Source: Eledone cirrhosa (Eukaryota). Taken from it: a stretch of DNA of 64,000 nucleotides. The notes under the pieces were generated by a model. That model had not been told where the DNA came from, ran no database searches, and saw nothing but the letters and a program-made list of their open reading frames with translations. Shown in pieces: positions 5,645-32,439 of the stretch (positions are counted from its first letter, which is position 1; each line of letters opens with the position of its first letter). The translations under genes were made by a program, and so were the position numbers. The stretch spans positions 22,878,001-22,942,000 of the forward strand of contig OZ024741.1 in NCBI GenBank assembly GCA_964016885.1, given 5' to 3'.

Positions 5645-5891
5645 TGTGGTTAGAAAAAGCTATCTCACTTACCGCTTTTCACAGGCGCCGCTAAATTCCA
5701 CTGCAGGTACTCCTCTTCCACGTGCGTCCGACTGCTTAACACCGGGAGCTGTCCAAAACGCGTCCTCACCGTATGCTGGTCACCACTCGAGAGAGGCCCT
5801 CTCCTGGCCCTTCCGGTCGAGCACTCAAAAACCCCTTCCGGTCGAGCACCCCCCCCCCCCCCCGTCCACCGCACGCCACACCATACCCACA
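5645..5891 (-). repeat. Gypsy 3' LTR
   Basis: TGTGGTTAG...CCCACA, matches 9523-9765; contains an internal direct repeat CCCTTCCGGTCGAGCAC x2. Confidence 0.95.
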
Positions 5892-5965
5892 CGCCCCCCT
5901 GATCTCAAGGATCAATTTCCCCCTCGTCCCTCTGCATATGAAAGTCTGCCGTCCAGGTCGGTGGT

Positions 5966-6772
5966 CTACGACTTCGTTGCGATCTTCGCAGTATTGGTTT
6001 CCACCTCATCTTGGGTTTCCTCTTCCTCGGAGTCCGTCGACACAGTGATTCTTCTTACATCCAGGACATGACGTGGTACCCCGTCCACGGACACATTGTT
6101 CTTTGAATTTACGGCCGTCACCGTTCCCCTTCCCCATTGAGATGTGCACCGTGCATCTGGGGGCTTAACCCAGACTTCTTCGCCTACCTGCACGAATGCA
6201 CTCTCTCTTCCCACTGGCCGTTGTGGTGGCGTGCACGGGTGCCGCCACTCGTATTTGAATACTGCTCTGTGTGGCACCGATTCCTCGACCTGTCCAACCC
6301 GAGGGGACATATTGTACCAGAACACTGCCTCCATTGGTGAGATATGGCCCCGCTCCGCCATTGCCTTGATCGTCCGGTGGTGTCGCTCCACGATTCCATT
6401 CCCGCTCGGCCTGTGCGCCGCTCTGAAGAAACGGTCCACCTTCCATCCATCGAGCATCTCCCTCAGTGCCTCCGAGCGGAACGCTGCGCTGTTGTCCATC
6501 AGCAGTTCATCCACAGGGCCCCGCTCCAAGAACACCTCTCTCAACGTCCGCACGATTTCCTCGGCCGTTCCAGTCTTCATCTCCCTCCATATCGCCATTC
6601 GACCTGGTCCACAGTCGACCATCGAGAGGTACGTTCCCTGCCGGTAGAACGTCACATCCACCGCTAATCGCTTCCAGTCGCGATCCACCGGGAGGCTTCC
6701 CGTTTCGTGTACACCCAGGGCGGGATCAATGGACTGACATCGGACGCAGCCTCTAACCACCCCCCCGAACAC
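5966..6772 (-). CDS. Gypsy integrase (DDE core), part of a frameshifted pol
   Basis: CVRC end of the HHCC finger, LAVDVT, LLMDNSAAF, PSGNGIVERHHRTIK motifs. Confidence 0.9.
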   Translation of the reverse strand: MFGGVVRGCVRCQSIDPALGVHETGSLPVDRDWKRLAVDVTFYRQGTYLSMVDCGPGRMAIWREMKTGTAEEIVRTLREVFLERGPVDELLMDNSAAFRSEALREMLDGWKVDRFFRAAHRPSGNGIVERHHRTIKAMAERGHISPMEAVFWYNMSPRVGQVEESVPHRAVFKYEWRHPCTPPQRPVGRESAFVQVGEEVWVKPPDARCTSQWGRGTVTAVNSKNNVSVDGVPRHVLDVRRITVSTDSEEEETQDEVETNTAKIATKS

Positions 6773-7409
6773 TGTGTCTGCTAACGTCCGAGTCGATTCT
6801 CCTGGCTAGGAACAGGCTCCTATCCACCCCCATGTGGTGCATGTCATGCAACCCCTTCAGGTCTAACTCGGTCAGCCGACACACGGCAGCTATCTCATCC
6901 TCTACCTCCTCCGGCGCTTCCATCCAGGCTTTCTTCACTCTAGTTAAGATGTCCGCCCTATTTTTCTCTGAAGGCACGAACACTACGCTCAGCTTCAGGT
7001 CGAACTCGGTGGCTAGCTCTCCTAACGTTCCCAGGCGGCGCTTTATCAGCATCTCCGCTGCGCCTCTCGTTCGCACTCTCTTCTCACTGGTGAGCACTGA
7101 TCTTACCCATCCGAGTACGGTAGCCGAGTCGGTGCGTATCTCGATGGTGCGCATCCCCCACCGCAGGGCAAGGTTCACCCCTCTCAACACCGCGTCCAGC
7201 TCGGCCACATTGATGTGGCTGCAGTCGTCCTTCTTTCTAAGCCAGGCTGCATCCTCGACCTCAACACCTCCTATCTCCAACGTGACACCCAGCGCTATGC
7301 TGCTGGCATCGCACCATACGGTTCCGCTCCGTGATTTGGGAACATACCAGCGTCCCCGCACTGGGTCGTCGGCCTTCACCCTCCCCAAGATCTCCTGCAT
7401 CATGGCCAC
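6753..7409 (-). CDS. Gypsy RNase H plus start of integrase HHCC, part of a frameshifted pol
   Basis: VWCDASS, HINVAELDAV, IRTDSATV, NRADILTR; LHDMHHMG. Confidence 0.88.
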   Translation of the reverse strand: MAMMQEILGRVKADDPVRGRWYVPKSRSGTVWCDASSIALGVTLEIGGVEVEDAAWLRKKDDCSHINVAELDAVLRGVNLALRWGMRTIEIRTDSATVLGWVRSVLTSEKRVRTRGAAEMLIKRRLGTLGELATEFDLKLSVVFVPSEKNRADILTRVKKAWMEAPEEVEDEIAAVCRLTELDLKGLHDMHHMGVDRSLFLARRIDSDVSRHSVRGGG

Positions 7410-7418
7410 CGTTCTCTC

Positions 7419-8660
7419 TCACACTCTGTCACTCCAAGTCACCCCTCCCGCTCGTCTCTTGACATAGCTGCATGCCGTCCGGAGCCACCCAGCGATCGGG
7501 TAGTGACCCACCAGCTTTCCACACACCGAGAAAAGCTCCCGCCTATTCATACTTGGGCCCAGTTCCGGAACTTCGTTTCCCCTCTGGAACACCAAAACGC
7601 CCGTCTTATCTCGTCGTAGCCTAAGTCCCAGCGCGGCTCCTCCCTCCAATGCTTCTGATGGCTTCGCAGTCAGTCCATACCTCCGTAAATGGCTCGTGAC
7701 CTCCGCCGACGACACCACCGACTCGTCCACTAGGATGTCGTCAATGTAGGAGTTAGTAGCCCTCTTTATCTTGTCGGCCCTCCCCAGAGCGGTCTTGAGG
7801 ACCGCCGCCATGATCTTCGGTGCGGGGCTCAGCCCGAAACCGAGCCTGGTCAGGCAATATGTCCGGCCCTTATACCTGACCAGCTGATACTGCCAGAGCT
7901 TCTCATCTATATGCAACTGCAAGTAAGCCGACTTTAGATCCACGATCGCTGAACCCCCCGTCATGCGTCTCCACTCACGCAGGGTTTCCCCACAGACATC
8001 CGTGACCTCGCCACCCGTGTGGCATGACACGTGCTCGTTCAGCTCTCGATAGTCCAGCACCGGCCTCACCTTGCTCTTCGTGGGTTGCACCACCGCCATC
8101 AACGGCAATACTCCGCACTTCACCTCCTCCTTCCAGGGAAGCAGTATGCCCTCTTCGATCCATCTCTCTACTTCTCGCTCGAACTCGCCCCTAGCGTTTC
8201 CCTTCAATGTGTGTTGATAGCAGCCCACTTTGGTCTTCAGTGTTGGTGGTTCTCCCTTCCAGTACCAGTCAACAACCCATCGCTGCCCATCAAACACGGC
8301 CTTGAAGTCCTTGTCCTGTACAGTGTAAGCGGGGTATTGCTCCTCGTGGGCCTTCTGGTTCTCATGACGTGCACTCACAGCGCATACCGATGCAGCGGCG
8401 CCAAACGACACACCGACATTGTTCACCGTGACGCCCCCTAGACGGCCAATCGCGTCCATGCCCATAACCACGCCGATCCCATCCACCACACTGGCGGAAA
8501 GCCTTATCGGCCTTCCCCATACCGCTATTTCCATCTCGCTGCGACCTCGGCATTCAATTTTCCTGCCGTCGACTGCCCTTACGCTGCTCTTCCCTCCCCA
8601 CCACCCCCGCGGTCACCAGTGTCGTCATACAGCCCGTATCCACGAGGGCTCGCTGTGGCT
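7419..8660 (-). CDS. Gypsy protease and reverse transcriptase, frameshifted
   Basis: ALVDTGC protease motif at ~8625-8650; KVRPVLDYRELN, DLKSAYLQ, RLGFGL, YIDDILV in ORF 7419-8534. Confidence 0.9.
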
Positions 8661-8696: not shown

Positions 8697-9458
8697 CTAC
8701 TCGTAAGGGGCAACTACCGGCGCAGTAGTTCCCCTTGGACCGTTTCCCTGGTCGCAGTTAGTAGCGATGTGGCCTGGTCGCTTACACCGGTAGCAAATTA
8801 TATCCGGCTTCGACTCTCTACAGTCTCTAGCCATATGCGGGCCGTGACACCTAAAACAGCGGCCCCTAAATTCTCGCGAACGGCCGCGTGCCGAGGTTGC
8901 CTCCCTTTGACCATTTCGCTGCCAGGTGTCCTGAGCCTTCGTAGTCGCTATCGCCGCGACACTCTTTTTGGCATCTTCCGCTATGATCCGGGCTTGTTCC
9001 ACCAGTGAACGCATTTCCATCTCCTTGTACCCCGAGACTTGCTGCAGTTTCACCGCTATGTCGTCCGGAAATCCATTGATGAATGCCAACCGCACCGTGT
9101 GTTCGCATTCCGCCTGGTAACCCGCCAACATAGCCAACCGCCTTATTTCCGCTGCGAAAATGTCGATGCGCTCACCATTCCACCTGATTCTCGCCAGCTT
9201 AGCAAAAGCCGCCAACGGTCCCTCGGCGAATGCATCCATCAGACGCCTCTCAATCTTCTGCACATCTCTTTGGCTGTGCTCGTCCAACTCAAGGAAGAGT
9301 ACCAACGCGTCGCCCTCAAGGTACAATGCAATGAGACCGGCCACGTCTTCTATCTTCTACAAGCCCGCGACCAGCCGAACCTTCCGCAGCCAAGCGACAA
9401 CATCACCTTCCCTGGTGAATGGCCTGATAGCTTCGTTCATCCGTAGTCTTGTCGCCAT
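8697..9458 (-). pseudogene. Gypsy gag with two CCHC zinc knuckles and one premature stop
   Basis: ATG at 9458 gives MATRLRMNEAIRPFTREGDVVAWLRKVRLVAGL*KIEDVAGL (TAG at 9357-9359); knuckles CFRCHGPHMARDC and CYRCKRPGHIATNC. Confidence 0.88.
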
Positions 9459-9522
9459 CTTCTGATTTGTTTTGTGGCAAGCGTTTTTTTTTTTTTTTTT
9501 TTTTTCAGTCGCCGAAATAGCT

Positions 9523-9765
9523 TGTGGTTAGAAAAAGCTATCTCACTTACCGCTTTTCACAGGCGCCGCTAAATTCCACTGCAGGTACTCCTCTTCCACG
9601 TGCGTCCGACTGCTTAACACCGGGAGCTGTCCAAAACGCGTCCTCACCGTATGCTGGTCACCACTCGAGAGAGGACCTCTCCTGGCCCTTCCGGTCGAGC
9701 ACTCAAAAACCCCTTCCGGTCGAGCACTCCCCCCCCCGCCCCCCGCACGCCACACCATACCCACA
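9523..9765 (-). repeat. Gypsy 5' LTR
   Basis: Matches 5645-5891 apart from the C-tract region and a few substitutions. Confidence 0.95.
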
Positions 9766-14942: not shown

Positions 14943-16153
14943 ATGATCCAAACCTGGAAGCAGGGACTAGAGAGAAAGGGCCTCAAAGTCAACATGACAA
15001 AGACTAAGGTCCTTGTAAGTAGACGAGAAAACAGAACCCAGATCCCCTCAGGGAAATGGCCTTGCTCAGTATGTAGGAAAGGTGTAGGTAGGAACTCCAT
15101 TCTCTGCCCCAAATGCAAACAATGGGTACACAAGAGATGTAGCGGGATCTCAGGAAGCTTAATTAAGAATGTAGGATTCACATGCAGCAGCTGTGCTGAA
15201 ACAGCAAGCAAACAGCCACAGGAAACAAGTACCACCAATCTCTGGGAGGGCCCTGTAGAAACAGTAGACAGCTTCTGCTACCTAGGTGACCGAATTAGCA
15301 ATGGAGGTGGGTGCTCAGAAAGTACAATAACTAGGGTAAGAACGGGATGGAAGAAGTTTAGGGAACTACTACCACTGCTAGCTGCAAAAGGCTTCTCCCT
15401 CAGAATGAAAGGCAGACTGTATGATGCGTGTATCCGAACAGCGATGTTGCATGGTAGTGAGACCTAGGCGCTGAAGGTGGAAGACTTACGTAGATTAGAG
15501 AGAAACGAAGCCTGCATGCTCCGATGGATGTGTAACAGTAATATACGTGAACGACAAAGCATAAAGGAATTGAGAGAGAGACTGAGCATCAGAGGAATCA
15601 AATGCTGCGTGCAGGAGAGGCGGTTACGCTGGTATGGACATGTGATGCGTATGAAGGATGACAGCTGCATAAAAAGGTGCAGAGCACTAGAAGTTGATGG
15701 AAACCGCGGAGTGGGGAGACCCAAGATGACTTGGGATGAGGTGATAAAAGCCGACCTTACCCAACTACACCTCTCAAAGACAATGACACACGACCGTGAC
15801 TTCTGGCGTCACGCAGTAATACAGGGTACCAGACCTCCCATGGGTACATGCTGAAGCATATAAACAATATGCCCCCCCCCCCCCCCCCCGCAAGGTGGTC
15901 GTGGAGGTGCCACGGCAAAAAAGCACCCAGCCCACACTGTAAAGTGGACGTGTAGGCGCCACAAAAAAGCACCCAGCACTCACTGTAAATGAGGTTGGTG
16001 TTAGGAAGGGCATCCAGCTGTAGAAATCAAGCCAGATCAGTTCCTGTATGAGCAAGGCATGGTTAGCCGACCAGACACTGCACACAACAGGACAACCCGT
16101 CTAACCCATGCTAGCGTGGAAGAACGGACGTAAAACGGTGATGATGATGATGA
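14943..16153 (+). mobile_element. 5'-truncated RTE LINE (subfamily B)
   Basis: ORFs 14943-15467 and 15477-15854 (GLKVNMTKTK, FCYLG, MLHGSET*, RLRWYGHVMR, GRPK); 3' UTR ends in (GAT)n. Confidence 0.92.
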
Positions 16154-19848: not shown

Positions 19849-22800
19849 TTCTTCTCAACTCTCCACATTCGGTTCATTCATCTATATATCTTACAATCCC
19901 CCAGAATCAAAAAAATTGTATTCAAAATTGGCTTTCTATAATTCTGTTCTGTCTCACCGTTGTTCTAAAAATAATTCTGCTCCTCGCATCTATATATCTT
20001 ACAATCCCCCAGAATCAAAAAATCATGTTCATAATTGTTTGTCTTTCTACAATTCTAAATAATATTCCTGCAACCATTTTAGCCGAAAAAAGAAATTATG
20101 CCAGGTTAAATTAGGGATTGCCCTCTCTCTCTCTTGGCCTGCTGAAATCGCCTCTCACCCCCTCACTCTCTCTATCATATACGCTGCTCTCACACTCCCC
20201 CCTCACTCCTTGCCAACCAAATATAAATAAACCATGCTACAGGGGACTAAACCCAGAATTTGTCTCCTATTATTGATGGTCGCTTGTTCAGTTTTCTTCT
20301 ACGAAATGTAACGTACATATCCATTTCTTCTCAACTCTCCACATTCGGTTCATTCATCTATATATCTTACAATCCCCCAGAATCAAAAAAATCGTATTCA
20401 AACTTGGCTTTCTATAATTCTGTTCTGTCTCACCGTTGTTCTAAAAATAATTCTGCTCCTCGCAAACTACCCCATACCCCTCCCTCCCGCCCCCACTCTC
20501 CACCTTATTATTTAGACCAATCACAAGTAAACGACCTATGCTAGCACTTCTGGTTGCTTTTTCGATATGATGGATGAACTAGGGAATTTCTGGAGAGTCA
20601 GAAGAATCTGGACACCCGAAGACAATGCAAAAGATAACGACAAATTCACCTCATGCTGCCGGACGAAAGGGCAAAGCCCCACCCTCTTTGTTGCGGCCGC
20701 GGATGGCCAACATAACCCCAACCCCATCAACCACACCCCTCCCTGCACCCCACCCAAAACTTCAGAGTTGGTACCATGAATGTAGGGACCTTAAAAGGCT
20801 GCTCAAACGAGGTTGTAGAAATGCTTGAACGTAAGGAGGTTGATGTCTGCTGCATCCAAGAGACCAGGTGGAGGGGCGGGTCTGCTAGATTCATTGTGGG
20901 TAAAAAACGATGCTATAAGCTTTTCTGGGTGGGAAATGACAATGGGCTGGGTGGGGTAGGAATCATGTTAGCAGAAAAATGGGTGGATAAGATAATAGAT
21001 GTAAATAGAGTAAACGACAGAATAATTAAAATAAGACTTGTTCTAAATAGAACTACTGTGACGATAATATCTGCGTACGCGCCCCAATCCGGACTGCCTG
21101 GCGCTATAAAAGACACTTTCTATGAGACACTGATGCTCACTACCTCCCAAATAACCGACAGTGACTATATAATTATTGCTGGCGACCTAAATGGTCACGT
21201 TGGACAACATTGTGACGGCTATGATGAAATCCATGGAGGCTATGGGTTTGGTACTAGAAATGAGGAAGGCTCCAGAATCCTGGAATTCTGTGACGCAAAT
21301 AACCTAACAATCTGTAACACTAACTTCAAAAAACGAGACAATCACTTGATCACCTACAGATCAGGGGAACATACCAGCCAGGTAGATTATATCCTTACCA
21401 GAAGACGTGACAGAGTGACTGTTGTAAACACTAAATCCCTCCCCCATGAAGAATGCACCTCCCAACATAGACTGATAATTAGCGACCTCATAGTCAGGAC
21501 GAGACGTACTCGACAGCAGAAGAGGACTAGCCTCAAGAGAAAAATATGGAAGCTAAAGGACCCCACAGCCAGAAATAAATTTCAAAGCATATTACTTGAT
21601 GCTTTCGACAGTAAGGAAGAGCATTTAGAGTCGGACAATATAGAGGGACAGTGGGATTTTCCTGAAATCAAACCTGCTGATGGCGGCAGACGAAGTCTGT
21701 GGCCGGAGCAGGCCTATAGGCAGGAGGAGAGTAACATGGTGGTGGAACAGTAAGGTGGAGGAGTCGATTAAGGCCAAAAAGCAGGCTTGGAAAATATGGC
21801 GGGATGGGGGAAGTAGAGAAGACTATCAAGTGGCCAGGAGGGAAGCTAGGAGACAAGTGTACTTTGCAAGAAGGGAAGCAGAGGAAAGAAAGTTCAAGCA
21901 TGTTCTACAACGCGAGGACCAAAAACGTGAGGTGTTCAGGATTGCTAGGCAATGTGTCAAGGAAAACCGCTGATAAGAAGGTCGCTTGGAAGTGTCACTA
22001 CGAGAGGCTACTAAATGAGGAGAATAAATGGGAGAAGGATAGTCTCCCCCAGATCGATCCAATAGAGGGACCAGCAGTGTTAGTTGAAGGTAGTATAATA
22101 AGTAAGGCAATCAAAGATATGAAGACGGGTAAGGCGGCTGGGCCTTCGGAAATAGTCGCTGAGATGCTGAAGGCCTCTGGAACGGTGGGACACACCATGG
22201 TCACCCGGATAGTAAACCAAGTCATACAGAATGGGGTTGTTCCGAAGGACTGGCGTAGCAGCATCATCATTAACTGTTACAAGGGTAAAGGAGACGCCCG
22301 AGATAGGAGTAACTATAGAGGGATTAAATTAATCGACCAGGTCATGAAGGTCACGGAAAAAGTAATAGTGCAACTAATCAGAGAGAGAATCGATCTAGAT
22401 GAAATGCAGTTCGGGTTTGTGTCAGGCAAAAGTACCACAGACGCTCTTTTCATTGTACGACAACTACAGGAGAAGTACCTAGCTAAAAGTAAACCCCTAT
22501 ACTTAGCCTTTGTCGACTTGGAGAAAGCCTTCGACAGAGTCCCCCGTTCCATTATCTGGTGGGCTCTTAGAAAACTAGGTGTTGACGAATGGCTTGTGAG
22601 AGCTATACAAGCCATGTATAAAGAAACAGTCAGCAAGGTTAGAATTAACAACGAATATAGTGAAGAGTTTAGCGTAAAAGCTGGTGTCCATCAGGGCTCT
22701 GTTCTTAGCCCCCTACTATTCATTATTGCTCTTCAGGCTATAACAGAGGAGTTCAAGACCGGCTGCCCATGGGAACTCCTATACGCAGATGACCTAACGC

Positions 22801-23531
22801 TCATAGCTGAATCAATGGCCGAGCTAGAGAAGAAATTCCAAACATGGAAGCACGGCCTAGAATCAAAAGGCCTTAAAATTAACATGGCTAAGACTAAAGT
22901 TCTAGTTTGTAGGAAAGAAAATAAGGCGCCGGTCCCTTCCGGGAAATGGCCATGCTCAGTGTGTAGGAAAGGCGTAGGTAGAAACTCCATTTTATGTCCC
23001 AAATGCAAAGTATGGGTGCATAAAAGATGTAGTGGGATCACAGGTAAGCTAACTAAGAACACAGATTTTACATGTGGCCGGTGCTCTGGTGCAATAAGTA
23101 GCAGCAAGTGCCCACAAAATACTAGCTCTTTCAACTGCGCAGAGGGTTCTATAGAAATAGTGGACAGCTTCCGTTACCTGGGTGACAAAATCAGCAGTGG
23201 GGGAGGGTGCTCCGAAAGTACAGTAGCTAGAGTCAGAACTGGATGGAAAAAGTTCAGAGAGCTTATACCACTATTAGCCGCTAAAGGGTTCTCCCTAAAA
23301 GTGAAAGGCAGGTTGTATGATGCCTGCATACGAACAGCAATGTTGTATGGCAGTGAGACCTGGGCATTGTGTGCAGAGGATATACGCAGACTAGAGAGGA
23401 ACGAAGCTTGCATGCTCCGCTGGATGTGTAATAGTAATATACGCGAACGGTAAAGCATAAACGAACTAAGGAAAAAATTAGAAATAAGAGGGATCAGATG
23501 TTGTTTACTCGAGAGAAGGCTACGTTGGTAT
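19849..23531 (+). mobile_element. Near full-length RTE LINE (5' UTR, APE endonuclease, RT), 3'-truncated and frameshifted
   Basis: APE motifs TMNVGTL, CIQETRW, SAYAPQ, GDLNGHVG, VDYIL, SQHRL (20776-21753); RT motifs NYRGIKL, QFGF, FVDLEKAFD, GVHQGSVLSPLLF, LLYADD, FRYLG (to 23453). Frameshift ~21660, deletion ~21970, stop at 23451. Confidence 0.93.
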
Positions 23532-27099: not shown

Positions 27100-28590
27100 T
27101 ATCATCACCGTTTTACGTCCGTTCTTCCATGCTAGCATGGGTTAGACAGGTTGTCCTGTTGTGGGCAGTGTCTGGTCGGCTGACCATGCCTTGCTCATAC
27201 AGGAACTGATTTTGGCTTGATTTCTACAGCTGGATGCCTTTCCTAACACCAACCTCATTTACAGTGAGTGCTGGGTGCTTTTTTTCCGTGGCGCCTACAC
27301 GTCCACTTTACAGTGTGGGCTGGGTGCTTTTTTGCCGTGGCCCCTCCACGACCACCTTACGGTGGGGTGTGTGGGGGCATATTGTCTATATGCTTCAGCT
27401 TGTACCCATGGGAGGTCGGGTACTCTGTATTACTGCGTGACGCCAGAGGTCACGGTCGTGAGAGGTGTAACTGGGTAAGGTCGGCCCCTATCACCTCATC
27501 CCAGGACTTCTTGGGTCTCCCCACTCCGCGGCTTCCATTGACTTCTAGTGCTCTGCACCTTTTTATGCAGCTGTCATCCTTCATACGCATCACATGTCCA
27601 TACCAACGCATCCGCCTCTCCTGCACACAGCATTTGATTCCTCTGATGCTCAGTCTCTCTCTCAATTCATTTATGCTTTGCCGTTCGCGTATATTACTAT
27701 TACACATCCATCGGAGCATGCAGGCTTCGTTTCTTTCTAATCTACGTAAGTCTTCCACCTTCAGCGCCCAGGTCTCACTACCATATAACATTGCTGTTCG
27801 GATACACGCATCATACAGTCTGCCTTTCATTTTGAGGGAGAAGCCTTTTGCAGCTAGCAGTGGCAGTAGTTCCCTGAACTTCTTCCATCCCGTTCTTACC
27901 CTAATTATTGTACTTTCTGAACACCCACCTCCGCTGCTAATTCGGACACCTAGGTAGCAGAAGCTGTCTACTGTTTCTACAGAGCCCTCCCAGAGATTGG
28001 TGGTACTTGTTTCCTGTGGCTGTTTGCTGCTTGCTGTCTCAGCACAGCTGCTACATGTGAAGCCTACATTTTTAATTAAGCTTCCTGAGATCCCGCTACA
28101 TCTCTTGTGTACCCATTGTTTGCATTTGGGGCAAAGAATGGAGTTCCTACCTACACCTTTCCTACATACTGAGCAAGGCCATTTCCCTGAGGGGATCTGG
28201 GTTCTGTTTTCTCGTCTACTTACAAGGACCTTAGTCTTTGTCATGTTGACTTTGAGACCCTTTCTTTCTAGTTCTACCATAGATTCAGCTATAAGTGCGA
28301 GGTCATCAGCATACAGGAGTTCCCAAGGGCATCCGGTCTTAAACTCCTCCATTATTGCCTGCAGGACTATGATGAACAGGAGAGGGCTAAGAACAGAGCC
28401 CTGGTGGACCCCAACCTGTACGCTAAATTCCTCACTATACTCATTGCTAATCCTAACTTTGCTGACTGCTCCCCTATACATGGCTTGTACAGCTTTCACG
28501 AGTCATTCATCTATTCCTAGTTTTCTTAGAGCCCACCAGATTACAGCACGTGGAACTCTGTCAAAGGCTTTCTTGAGATCGACAAATGCC
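27100..28590 (-). mobile_element. 5'-truncated RTE LINE (subfamily B) in a gamma-tubulin intron
   Basis: ORF 27450-28499 with GVHQGSVLSPLLF, LLYADD, PHD-like finger, RWYGHVMR; 3' UTR matches 15860-16150. Confidence 0.93.
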
Positions 28591-28949: not shown

Positions 28950-31900
28950 CAGTCCTAGAATAGAAGCCATGATCTTATGATCACTCCTGGAATAGAAGCC
29001 TTGACCTTATGATCAGTCCTGGAATAGAAGCCATGACCTTATGATCAGTCCTGGAATAGAAGCCACGATCTTATGATCAATCCTGGAATAGAAGCCATGA
29101 CCTTTTGATCAGTCCTGGAATAGAAGACATGACCTTTTGATCAGTCCTGGAATAGAAGACATGACCTTTTGATCAGTCCTGGAATACAAGCCACGATCTT
29201 ATGATCAATCCTGGAATAGAAGCCATGACCTTATGATCAGTCTTAGAATTGAAGCCATGATCTTATGATCAGTCCTAGAATTGAAGTTATGATCTGTCCT
29301 AGAATAGAAGCCACGATCTTATGATCAGTCCTGGAATAGAAGCCATGATATGATCAGTCCTAGAATAGAAGCCACGATCTTATGATTAATCCTGGAATAG
29401 AAGTCATGATCTTATGATCAATCCTGGAATAGAAGTCATGATCTTATGATCAGTCCTAGAATAGAAGCCACGATCTTATGATCAATCCTGGAATAGAAGT
29501 CATGATCTTATGATCAGTCCCGGAATTGAAGCCATGATCTAATGATCAGTCCTAGAATGGAAGCCATGACCTTATGATCAGTCCTAGAATGGAAGCCATG
29601 ACCTGCAGTCATGATCAATCCTGGAATAGAAGTCATGATCCTATGATCAGTCCTGGAATAGAAGCCATGATCTTATGATCAGTCCTAATCTTATGATCTG
29701 TCCTAGAATAGAAGCCACGATCTTATGATCAGTTCTGGAATAGAAGCCATGATCTTATGATCAGTCCTAGAATAGAAGCCATGATCTTATGATCAGTCCT
29801 AGAATAGAAGCCATGATCTTATGATCAATCCTGGAATTGAAGCCATGATCTTATGATCAGTCCTAGAATGGAAGCCATGACCTTATGATCAGTCCTGGAA
29901 TAGAAGTCATGATCTTATGATCAGTCCTAGAATAGAAGCCATGATCTTATGATCAATCCTGGAATTGAAGCCATGATCTTATGATCAGTCCTAGAATGGA
30001 AGCCACGATCTTATGATCAGTCCTGGAATAGAAGCCATGATCTTATGAACAGTCCTGGAATAGAAGCCATGATCTTATGATCAATCCTGGAATAGAAGCC
30101 ATGATCTTATGATCAATCCTGGAATAGAAGCCATGATTTTATGATCAGTCATGGAATTGAAGCCATGAGTTTATGATCAGTCATGGAATTGAAGCCATGA
30201 GTTTATGATCAGTCCTAGAATGGAAGCCATGACCTTATGATCAGTCCTAGAATTGAAGTCATGATCTTATGATCAGTGCTAGAATTGAAGTCATGATCTT
30301 ATGATCAATCCTGGAATAGAAGTCATGATCTTATGATCAGTCCTGGAATAGAAGTCACGATCATATGATCAGTCCTGGAATAGAAGCCATGATCCTATGA
30401 TCAGTCTTGGAATTGAAGTCATGATCTTATGATCAATCCTGGAATAGAAGTCATGATCTTATGATCAATCCTAGAATTGAAGTCGACTTCTATTCCAGGA
30501 CTGATCATAAGATATGATCAGTCCTGGAATTGAAGACATGATCTTATGATCAGTCCTAGAATTGAAGCCATGATCTTATGATCAGTCCTAGAATAGAAGC
30601 CATGATCTTATGATCATTCCTAGAATTGAAGCCATGATCTTATGATCAGTGCTCGAATAGAAGCCATGATCTTATGATCAGTCCTGGAATAGAAGTCACG
30701 ATCTTATGAACAGTCCTGGAATAGAAGCCACGATCTTATGATCAGTTCTGGAATAGAAGCTATGATCTTATGATCAGTCCTGGAATAGAAGCCATGATCT
30801 TATGATCAGTCCTAGAATAGAAGCCATCATCCTATGATCAGTCCTAGAATTGAAGCCATGATCTTATGATCAGTTCTGGAATAGGAGTCATGATCTTATG
30901 ATCAGTTCTGATCTTATCAGTCCTAGAATTGAAGCCATGATTTTATGATCAGTTCTGGAATAGAAGCTATGATCTTATGATCAATCCTGGAATAGAAGTC
31001 ATGATCTTATGATCAATCCTGGAATAGAAGCCATGATCTTATGATCAGTCCTGGAATTGAAGCTATATGATCTGTCCTAGAATGGAAGCCATGACCTTAT
31101 GATCAGTCCTAGAATAGAAGCCACGATCTTATGATCAGTCCTGGAATAGAAGCCATGATCTTATGATCAGCCCTGACCTTATGATCAGTCCTGGACGAGA
31201 AGCTATGATCTTATGATCAATCCTAGAATTGAAGTGATGATCTTATGATCAGTCCTGGAATAGAAGCCATGATCTTATGATCAGCCCTGGAATAGAAGTC
31301 ATGATCTTATGATCAATCCTAGAATTGAAGTCATGATCTTATGATCAGTCCTGGAATAGAAGCCATGATCTTATCAGTCCTGGAATTGAAGCTATGATAT
31401 GATCTGTTCTAGAATGGAAGCCATGACCTTATGATCAGTCCTAGAATTGAAGTCATGATCTTATGATCAGTCCTAGAATTGAAGTCATGATCTTATGATC
31501 AATCCTGGAATAGAAGTCATGATCTTATGATCAATCCTGGAATAGAAGTCATGATCTTATGATCCGTCCTAGAATAGAAGCCATGATATGATCAGTCCTG
31601 GAATAGAAGTCATGATCTTATGATCAGTCCTGGTATAGAAGTGATGATCTTATGATCAGTCCTGGAATAGAAGCCATGATCATATGATCAGTCTTAGAAT
31701 TGAAGCCATGATACTATGATCAGTCCTAGAATGGAAGCCCTGACTTTATGATCAGTCCTAGAATTGAAGTCATGATCTCATGATCAGTCCTGGAATAGAA
31801 GCCATGATCTTATGATCAGTCCTGGAATAGAAGCTATGAACTTATGATCAGTCCTGGAATAGAAGCTATGATCTTATGATCAGTCCTGGAATTGAAGTTA

Positions 31901-32439
31901 TGATATGATCTGTCCTAGAATGGAAGCCATGACCTTATGATAAGTCCTAGAATTGAAGTCATGATCTTATGATCAGTCCTAGAATTGAAGTCATGATCTT
32001 ATGATCAGTTCTAGAATTGAAGTCATGATCTTATGATCAGTCCTAGAATTGAAGTCATGATCTTATGATCAGTCCTAGAATAGAAGCCATGATCCTATGA
32101 TCAATCCTAGAATTGAAGTCATGATCTTATGATTAGTCCTAGAATAGAAGCCATAATCCTATGATCAGTCCTGGAATAGAAGTCATGATCTTATGATCAG
32201 TCCTAGAATGGAAGCCATGATCTTATGATCAGTCCTAGAATGGAAGCCATGATCTGATGATCAGACTTAGAATTGAAGCTATGATCTTATGATCAGTCTT
32301 AGAATTGAAGCCATGATCTTATGATCAGTCCTAGAATGGAAGCCATGACCTTATGATCAGTCCTAGAATGGAAGCCATTGTCTTATGATCAGTCCTAGAC
32401 TTGAAGCCATTGTCTTATGATCAGTCCTAGAATTGAAGC
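28950..32439. repeat. 32-bp intronic minisatellite, ~109 copies
   Basis: Consensus CAGTCCT(G/A)GAATAGAAGCCATGATCTTATGAT, moderately diverged; one inverted unit at 30485-30513. Confidence 0.98.

Follow-up and report, generated by a model that had tools for sequence, protein, structure and literature searches.

What primes reverse transcription in an LTR retrotransposon whose LTR edge lacks the TGG of a site for a tRNA 3′ end? The question arises from the window, by which we mean the whole stretch of 64,000 nucleotides of Eledone cirrhosa DNA that was analyzed (GenBank assembly GCA_964016885.1, contig OZ024741.1, positions 22,878,001 to 22,942,000 of the forward strand). The relevant passages of the literature list three primer types for LTR elements, namely the 3′ end of a whole tRNA, a half tRNA cut at the anticodon and a self-primer (PMC6317226), and give tRNA 3′ ends or anticodon loops as the matches of a primer-binding site (PBS) (PMC10886601). 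An initial annotation of the window had proposed that bases adjoining the 5′ LTR of one element match the 5′ end of tRNA-Phe. The comparisons reported here give good support to the identification of these 12 bases as the PBS of a clade of compact LTR retrotransposons, complementary to the 5′ end of a host tRNA.

Structure of the element

The element is a single LTR retrotransposon of about 4.1 kb that runs from 9765 to 5645 on the minus strand (Table 1). Its two LTRs are identical in 240 of 243 aligned columns. The window copy is broken by stops and frame changes, and the start of its protease lies in another frame than the segment at 7419..8612. Bases 9522–9511 start right after the terminal CA of the LTR, with no spacer and no TGG.

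Two further features lie near the LTRs. A GGTAAGT motif near the end of the LTR, which we take to be splice-donor-like, is kept in three host subfamilies (L073, L093, L097) whose U5 is otherwise different. Directly before the polypurine tract (PPT) is a hairpin of 5–7 bp with compensating changes in its stem, which perhaps positions RNase H for plus-strand priming. In the window and 24 metagenome loci, a stem of at least 5 bp is present in 23 of the 25 sequences, versus 0.5 in shuffles. A second tRNA-binding site before the PPT, as in Ty3, was considered and rejected in favor of this conserved hairpin.

Table 1. Features of the retrotransposon in the window
Feature	Position	Strand	Remarks
5′ LTR	9523..9765	−	243 nt, TG...CA
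3′ LTR	5645..5891	−	247 nt, TG...CA
Target-site duplication, left copy GATAA	9766..9770	−	5 bp
Target-site duplication, right copy GATAA	5640..5644	−	5 bp
Primer-binding site (candidate)	9511..9522	−	exact complement of host tRNA-Phe(GAA) nt 1–12; adjoins LTR
GACTGAA	9504..9510	−	deletion-shortened leader remnant of the window subfamily; not conserved, outside the site
U5 arm GAGATAGCT	9536..9544	−	can fold onto primer site; hairpin −15.5 kcal/mol, z −2.2
GGTAAGT	9545..9551	−	about 25 nt before LTR end; kept in host subfamilies
gag with CCHC zinc knuckle	8697..9458	−	in-frame stop interrupts window copy
pol: protease C-terminal part, reverse transcriptase (YIDD), DUF7047	7419..8612	−	ends at in-frame stop
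pol: RNase H (RVT_3/RNase_H type, not RT_RNaseH) and integrase zinc-binding part	6753..7418	−	
pol: integrase core (rve) and C-terminal module	5966..6805	−	frame differs from RNase H part
Short hairpin, 5-bp stem, directly before polypurine tract	5900..5914	−	clade-wide, compensating changes
Polypurine tract (A + G run) and 2-nt spacer before 3′ LTR	5892..5900	−	

Complementarity of the site to host tRNA-Phe

The proposal that positions 9511–9522 are the exact complement of nucleotides 1–12 of tRNA-Phe(GAA) was confirmed with tRNA genes of the host. The initial annotation had given this tRNA start, and the comparisons with the host genome agree with it: the complementary 15-mer has 247 exact matches versus 0 for a control pattern, ARAGORN calls tRNA-Phe(GAA) genes at 7 of the 8 matching loci scanned, and the complement of the site begins the four host tRNA-Phe genes examined, where it is located at tRNA positions 1–12 only. 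The anticodon stem-loop, which is the region matched in half-tRNA systems, is thus not complementary to the site.

The predicted duplex between the site and the tRNA has an energy of −20.7 kcal/mol and gains nothing past nucleotide 12; pairing cannot extend further because the LTR ends in A, which lies opposite C13. By contrast, the 3′ 18 nt of the tRNA-Phe gene form only a broken duplex with the site region (−9.8 kcal/mol). There is no TGG at the LTR edge in the window, the host copies or 54 relatives, and pairing of a tRNA 3′ end was checked for tRNA-Phe.

The bases after the site had also been linked to the tRNA. GACTGAA is indeed present at 9510–9504, but its reading as a match to the tRNA-Phe anticodon loop was rejected: host subfamily A2 (L103) has the LTR end of the window and a longer leader, which explains GACTGAA as the remnant that a deletion left in one subfamily. 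Two other pairings were noticed by eye, of post-site bases with tRNA nucleotides 12–18 and of a 7-mer in the A2 leader with nucleotides 11–17, and both were set aside as not conserved.

Copies and subfamilies in the host genome

The exact 12-mer occurs in 29 of 30 host copies fetched. A pattern that left free the four middle bases as well as the final base of the LTR, and that is blind to copies damaged in its fixed part, has 366 matches in the host genome and 0 in controls. Among the first 100 of these matches listed, 91 are exact, 5 have CpG-type changes and 4 differ in some other way; every one of the 100 has A as its last LTR base. The site is damaged in several host copies (L078, L080, L088, L100, L109). 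A 5-bp target-site duplication (TSD) was found in 12 of 17 copies scored.

Subfamilies were defined from forty longer stretches. Subfamily B has an RT about 80% identical to that of the window, a different U5 and no GAGATAGCT arm; in subfamily C the arm is present but shifted. The arm thus occurs in subfamilies A and C and is absent from B and from nearly all distant families. The 12-mer is retained in all host subfamilies with a different U5 and leader, whose sequences part directly after it.

Three contig sets, all from one study, span the LTR; they have no listed difference in the site, and they cannot reveal transcript ends. Searches of the host genome for more distant families gave the same family only, and the pattern with other variant tRNA starts had 2 matches there versus 3 in controls.

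Distant relatives carry the site

A profile built from 57 homologues retrieved 77 metagenome loci whose proteins are 37–54% identical to that of the window. In 54 of the 77, CA is followed at the LTR edge by AGCTA-NNNN-G[G/T]C, a pattern expected by chance in about 2% of 700-nt windows per locus. Among the 32 relatives with at least 1300 nt of upstream DNA, 29 have the site. Conservation of the site across the clade is not due to chance. The 54 loci represent 38 families below 80% RT identity, with a median RT identity of 51%. The initial annotation had foreseen that other copies might carry a normal TGG site or vary freely at this position; neither was found, and the match to tRNA positions 1–12 is conserved.

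The 23 loci without the pattern comprise 16 that are cut off before the region, four with a site one base shorter or longer, one with a partial site at the contig start, one lacking the 5′ part of the element, and one (L162) in which the 95 nt upstream of the first ATG contain no site. The altered sites have lost one base (two families) or gained one near their GG end (L123/L124, L148, L169), which might be what slippage during copying of the primer would give.

The edges of the conserved region are sharp. The three bases before the site, which the search pattern left free, are A, C and A in 37, 36 and 37 of the 38 families, and at loci that have both LTRs this ACA is the LTR end. At position 13 the information content is down to 0.24 bits, and there is almost no conservation beyond it or upstream of ACA. 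The conservation score of positions 1–5 and 10–12 is circular, because the search pattern fixed them. In 36 of 38 families, the first ATG follows the primer site by 0–26 nt, so that hardly any leader is left to hold a packaging signal.

The named homologues belong to a sponge, Hydra, Trichuris, crustaceans, a sea spider, gastropods, cephalopods and a bryozoan. Among the proteins, P0191, P0199 and P0203 form a subgroup of sponge type that is longer. In all, 962 clusters at 50% identity match the clade at E up to 1e-30. We found no relatives in viral contigs, where there was one pattern match only.

Variable bases follow tRNA starts

Variation in the site is confined to its four middle bases, which pair with acceptor-stem positions 4–7 of the tRNA. 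The common classes among the 54 loci are TTTC (13, plus one changed at position 11), TCGC (11), TCTA (10) and TCAC (8); the rarer ones are TCCC (3), CCTC (3), TCCG (2), ACAC (1), TCTC (1) and GCCG (1).

With these four positions left free, there are at least 13 different tRNA-Phe starts among the matches listed in records not labelled archaeal. The tRNA-Phe(GAA) starts listed include the complements of TTTC, TCGC, TCAC and TCTA, the four commonest variants; for 29 of the 38 families, all 12 positions fit a real tRNA-Phe start among the tRNA genes listed. These variant-matching genes belong to stray contigs in prokaryotic bins and to one viral contig rather than to the hosts of the elements, and the TCTA match involves one viral-contig gene and one family. 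That 4 of 10 variant classes should fall within 13 of the 256 possible words, given the starts listed, has a probability of about 0.001 under a crude null. At tRNA wobble pairs, TCAC and TCTA are the complement of the 5′ strand of the tRNA and differ from the sense 3′ strand.

The GCCG site, found in one family, is the complement of nucleotides 1–12 of host tRNA-Lys(CTT). Seven of the 38 families have no tRNA-Phe match among the matches listed (two each of TCCG and CCTC, and one each of TCCC, TCTC and ACAC). TCCG would correspond to a tRNA-Lys(TTT) start; this reading fits none of 66 host matches and is absent among viral-contig Lys genes. For ACAC there is a weak match, to one of the 22 types of Lys start in viral contigs.

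Distinct families in the same assembly tend to share a variant: 18 of 32 such pairs do, versus 154 of 1345 pairs across assemblies (p 0.0001 by permutation of family labels, the pairs not being independent). The 14 same-assembly pairs that differ are all from a single assembly, which has five variants. In a quickly built RT tree, the variant class changes 19 times where the minimum is 9, and TTTC, TCGC and TCAC each recur on several branches; the tree has 57 labelled rows, with 28 unlabelled or outgroup segments and L093 set aside, and its support is low, 8 of its 54 inner branches being starred. The three CCTC loci are from one assembly and occupy two separate branches.

In the course of these searches, we observed eukaryote-type tRNA-Phe genes, some of them in tandem, inside bacterial genome bins (L236–L245, L252, L259, L265, L269–L272, L306, L326, L333, L340). 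These are likely contamination from host DNA.

Proposed priming mechanism and its alternatives

Minus-strand DNA synthesis is probably primed by a 10–12-nt fragment of the tRNA 5′ end (of tRNA-Phe, rarely of tRNA-Lys), because the site complements the first 12 nt of a host tRNA. This interpretation is based on the position at the LTR edge, the exact complementarity, the conservation that ends at tRNA nucleotide 1 and the variation that follows tRNA starts. We envisage that the 5′ strand of the tRNA, consisting of the acceptor strand and the start of the D stem, would anneal to the site, and that a cut in the D stem, just past U12 where the duplex stops, would follow. The enzyme would most likely be the element's own RT/RNase H, acting as in Tf1 but in trans. 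The relevant part of PMC7175516 provides a precedent in Tf1 for cutting a 5′-terminal 11-mer at the PBS duplex. The new 3′-OH would then be extended across the LTR.

In a last step, the fragment may be copied up to its 5′ end during plus-strand synthesis. Such copying would explain both the sharp far boundary of the site and its tracking of tRNA variants. It would not be general, since Ty1 and Ty3 inherit the PBS rather than copying the primer, according to the part of PMC7472051 that concerns them. Because the PPT, which contains a G run, is followed by a 2-nt spacer, the primer may end at nucleotide 10, with two bases copied as DNA; this could be so if 2 nt are processed at either end of the element.

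The main rival for the cutting step is a host-made 5′ tRNA fragment. Such a fragment, cut in or near the D loop, would anneal and be trimmed to the paired 12 nt, and the enzymes of the element would not cut. We consider this unlikely, if still a serious candidate, and it competes with the second step only, because it is compatible with the core claim. Cutting in the D loop gives 5′ tRNA fragments of about 14–16 nt, and tRNA-Phe genes are abundant in the host (247 matches). Fragments from tRNA 5′ ends do exist as a class, as the relevant section of PMC7472051 describes. However, pairing ends exactly at nucleotide 12 in 37 of 38 families and in all 100 host copies listed. With a ragged fragment, some sites ought to be longer, and only L175 has a G before the site.

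The main rival overall is that the tRNA is bound by its 5′ strand and stays uncut. It might prime from an internal 2′-OH, or it might serve in packaging, dimerization or regulation, with priming by another route. A cut cannot be demonstrated from sequence alone, and tRNA regions other than the 3′ end have roles of the packaging, dimerization or regulation type in Ty1 and Ty3. Nonetheless, we judge this alternative improbable: the LTR edge offers no other primer site, having no TGG and pairing poorly with the tRNA-Phe 3′ end, and in all families with data the site lies exactly where priming sets the LTR boundary.

The site could also be a motif of the element itself, such as an integrase or Gag signal, whose likeness to tRNA starts is due to chance or to an old capture. 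The flanking AGCTA and GGC are invariant, as a protein-binding motif might be. This reading is nevertheless very improbable, given that the variable middle falls on real tRNA starts, including a switch to a tRNA-Lys start, and that unrelated families within an assembly have a variant in common.

Self-priming by the 5′ end of the transcript, as in Tf1, had been raised in the initial annotation on account of the U5 arm. This arm is present at 9544–9536, can fold onto the site and pairs with 10 of its bases in the window subfamily, a number also reached by subfamily C and L138, but self-priming is largely refuted and earns almost no credence from us: the arm is limited to some host subfamilies, B keeps the site without it, none of 53 LTR or upstream regions (some LTRs being partial) holds the complement of the site or gives at least 11 contiguous pairs, most of them equal shuffles, the arm's distance of 13 nt from the LTR end is presumably too short for usable strong-stop DNA, and the site tracks tRNA sequences, not LTR sequences. 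The U5 hairpin of the window copy is a local feature and may mask the site, although at −15.5 kcal/mol it is weaker than the tRNA duplex.

Lineage of the element

The initial annotation labelled the element "Gypsy", and some of its properties are those of this group. The pol order is PR-RT-RH-IN, as in Ty3/Gypsy (Metaviridae), and TG...CA LTRs with a 5-bp TSD lie within the 4–6-bp range of Ty3/Gypsy. Similarity of the RT and RNase H, by contrast, does not support the label. An RT profile of the clade gives 215–293 bits on the 77 metagenome relatives versus at most 18 on canonical Gypsy loci of the host (40 fetched); the Ty3 RT scores 28 bits against it and a foamy-virus RT 39 bits. As a single protein, the full-length clade member P0125 has no match to Ty3, whereas a canonical Gypsy element of the host genome, as a control, scores 290 bits against it. 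The RTs of P0001, P0002 and P0125 are about equally far from those of Ty3, foamy virus and HIV.

The Pfam family RT_RNaseH is absent from all 16 proteins scanned and from 240 rows among the matches listed, in place of which the RVT_3/RNase_H type is found. We presume that the RNase H motifs of the clade resemble those of DIRS and hepadnaviruses. The integrase has a C-terminal module with W-x-x-G conserved in 24 aligned proteins and no literal GPF/Y. A crude pick gives YIDD, YLDD or YVDD for 65 of 85 segments, and the window copy has YIDD. The ESM Atlas gave leads only, namely hepadnaviral and retroviral RT clusters at 0.95 and unnamed RNase H clusters. Reference DIRS and BEL sequences sought in the host genome gave nothing or one fragment.

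Given the distance of its RT and RNase H from Ty3, the "Gypsy" label is doubtful for the clade, and comparisons at this level suggest that the lineage may deserve its own rank. Gypsy itself is poorly supported as one branch in the relevant part of PMC12440569. Membership in Troyka or Kuafuorterviridae was rejected on the basis of the TG...CA termini, the 5-bp TSD and the YxDD catalytic motif. When five RT motifs of the clade were compared with the supplement of PMC11673190, four were absent and one occurred in Gypsy rows only. No paper on DUF7047 was found in the full-text literature searched.

Relation to known systems

Half-tRNA priming occurs in copia, Ty5, Osser, Bryco, Gymco-II, Bianca, fungal Copia and Helenus. 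There too, according to the relevant passages of PMC6317226 and PMC10886601, a 3′-truncated tRNA is the primer and the site is beside the 5′ LTR. In those systems the cut is in the anticodon stem or loop and the site matches the anticodon region, whereas in the window clade the site matches nucleotides 1–12 and the putative cut is in the D stem. Moreover, the half-tRNA systems are Copia elements, whereas our clade has the PR-RT-RH-IN order.

Tf1/Sushi elements are similar in that a 5′-terminal RNA 11-mer anneals to the PBS and RNase H releases it at the end of the duplex (PMC7175516, in the part on priming). There, however, the element's own transcript primes, whereas the putative primer RNA in the window clade is a host tRNA in trans, and the clade's RT is not close to the Ty3 sequence tested. 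With Ty3/Gypsy, the clade shares the gag-PR-RT-RH-IN order, TG...CA LTRs, a 5-bp TSD, the CCHC knuckle and an HHCC integrase. It differs in its distant RT, an RNase H that is not RT_RNaseH, the DUF7047 after the RT, a length of only about 4.1 kb and the lack of a site for a tRNA 3′ end.

Troyka and the Kuafuorterviruses resemble the clade as an LTR lineage of aquatic animals that was recently separated and had once been filed as Gypsy, according to the main texts of PMC12440569 and PMC11673190. Troyka elements have CG...CG ends, a 3-bp TSD and [ILV]ADD and are mostly 5–6 kb, as opposed to TG...CA, 5 bp and YxDD here. Those main texts contain no mention of a primer site.

Within the full-text literature searched, neither a PBS that matches the 5′ end of a tRNA nor the window clade is described; subscription journals, Repbase Reports, the Troyka figshare data and bioRxiv supplements are outside this scope. 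The relevant passages of PMC4600332, PMC9527309 and PMC3587641 likewise contain neither. The corresponding passage of PMC6238403 has no discussion of the PBS, and its unnamed mollusc clades could include the window clade.

The complementarity makes it likely that the site serves priming by a tRNA fragment. If so, a 12-nt primer from a tRNA 5′ end would be a fourth primer type, one that links half-tRNA priming with the self-priming of Tf1. It would also give a function to 5′ tRNA fragments of very small size. Such priming would also place the clade beyond the reach of silencing by 3′ tRNA fragments (3′-tRFs) and would explain why annotation tools seeking tRNA 3′ ends report "no PBS". The site and its tRNA also offer a defined substrate with which to ask in vitro what enzyme produces cleaved primers. 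In addition, the site is a clean diagnostic for a large lineage (the 962 clusters above) with an RT and RNase H unlike those of Gypsy. A broader proposal combines two parts: the element's own RT/RNase H would clip a tRNA-Phe or tRNA-Lys 12-mer at the LTR edge as a fourth priming mode, and the site would mark an undescribed DUF7047-type superfamily of ~4-kb elements, extending from sponges and cnidarians to nematodes, arthropods, molluscs and bryozoans. We put this combination forward tentatively, with slightly more doubt than belief.

Additional observations

Large tandem tRNA arrays occur in the host at G000:C4:117.36-117.54 Mb, C4:79.56-79.62 and 128.67-128.74 Mb. They consist of Phe/Asn units of about 1.26 kb and of Lys(CTT) clusters.

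The window also contains copies of a non-LTR retrotransposon with an endonuclease, an RT and a C-terminal PHD finger, at 20716-23453 (+), 27450-28502 (−) and 14943-15467 (+), which are presumably Vingi-like. A 32-bp tandem array is located at about 30000-32439, and a long tandem satellite array with a 45-bp unit occupies 36262-64000.
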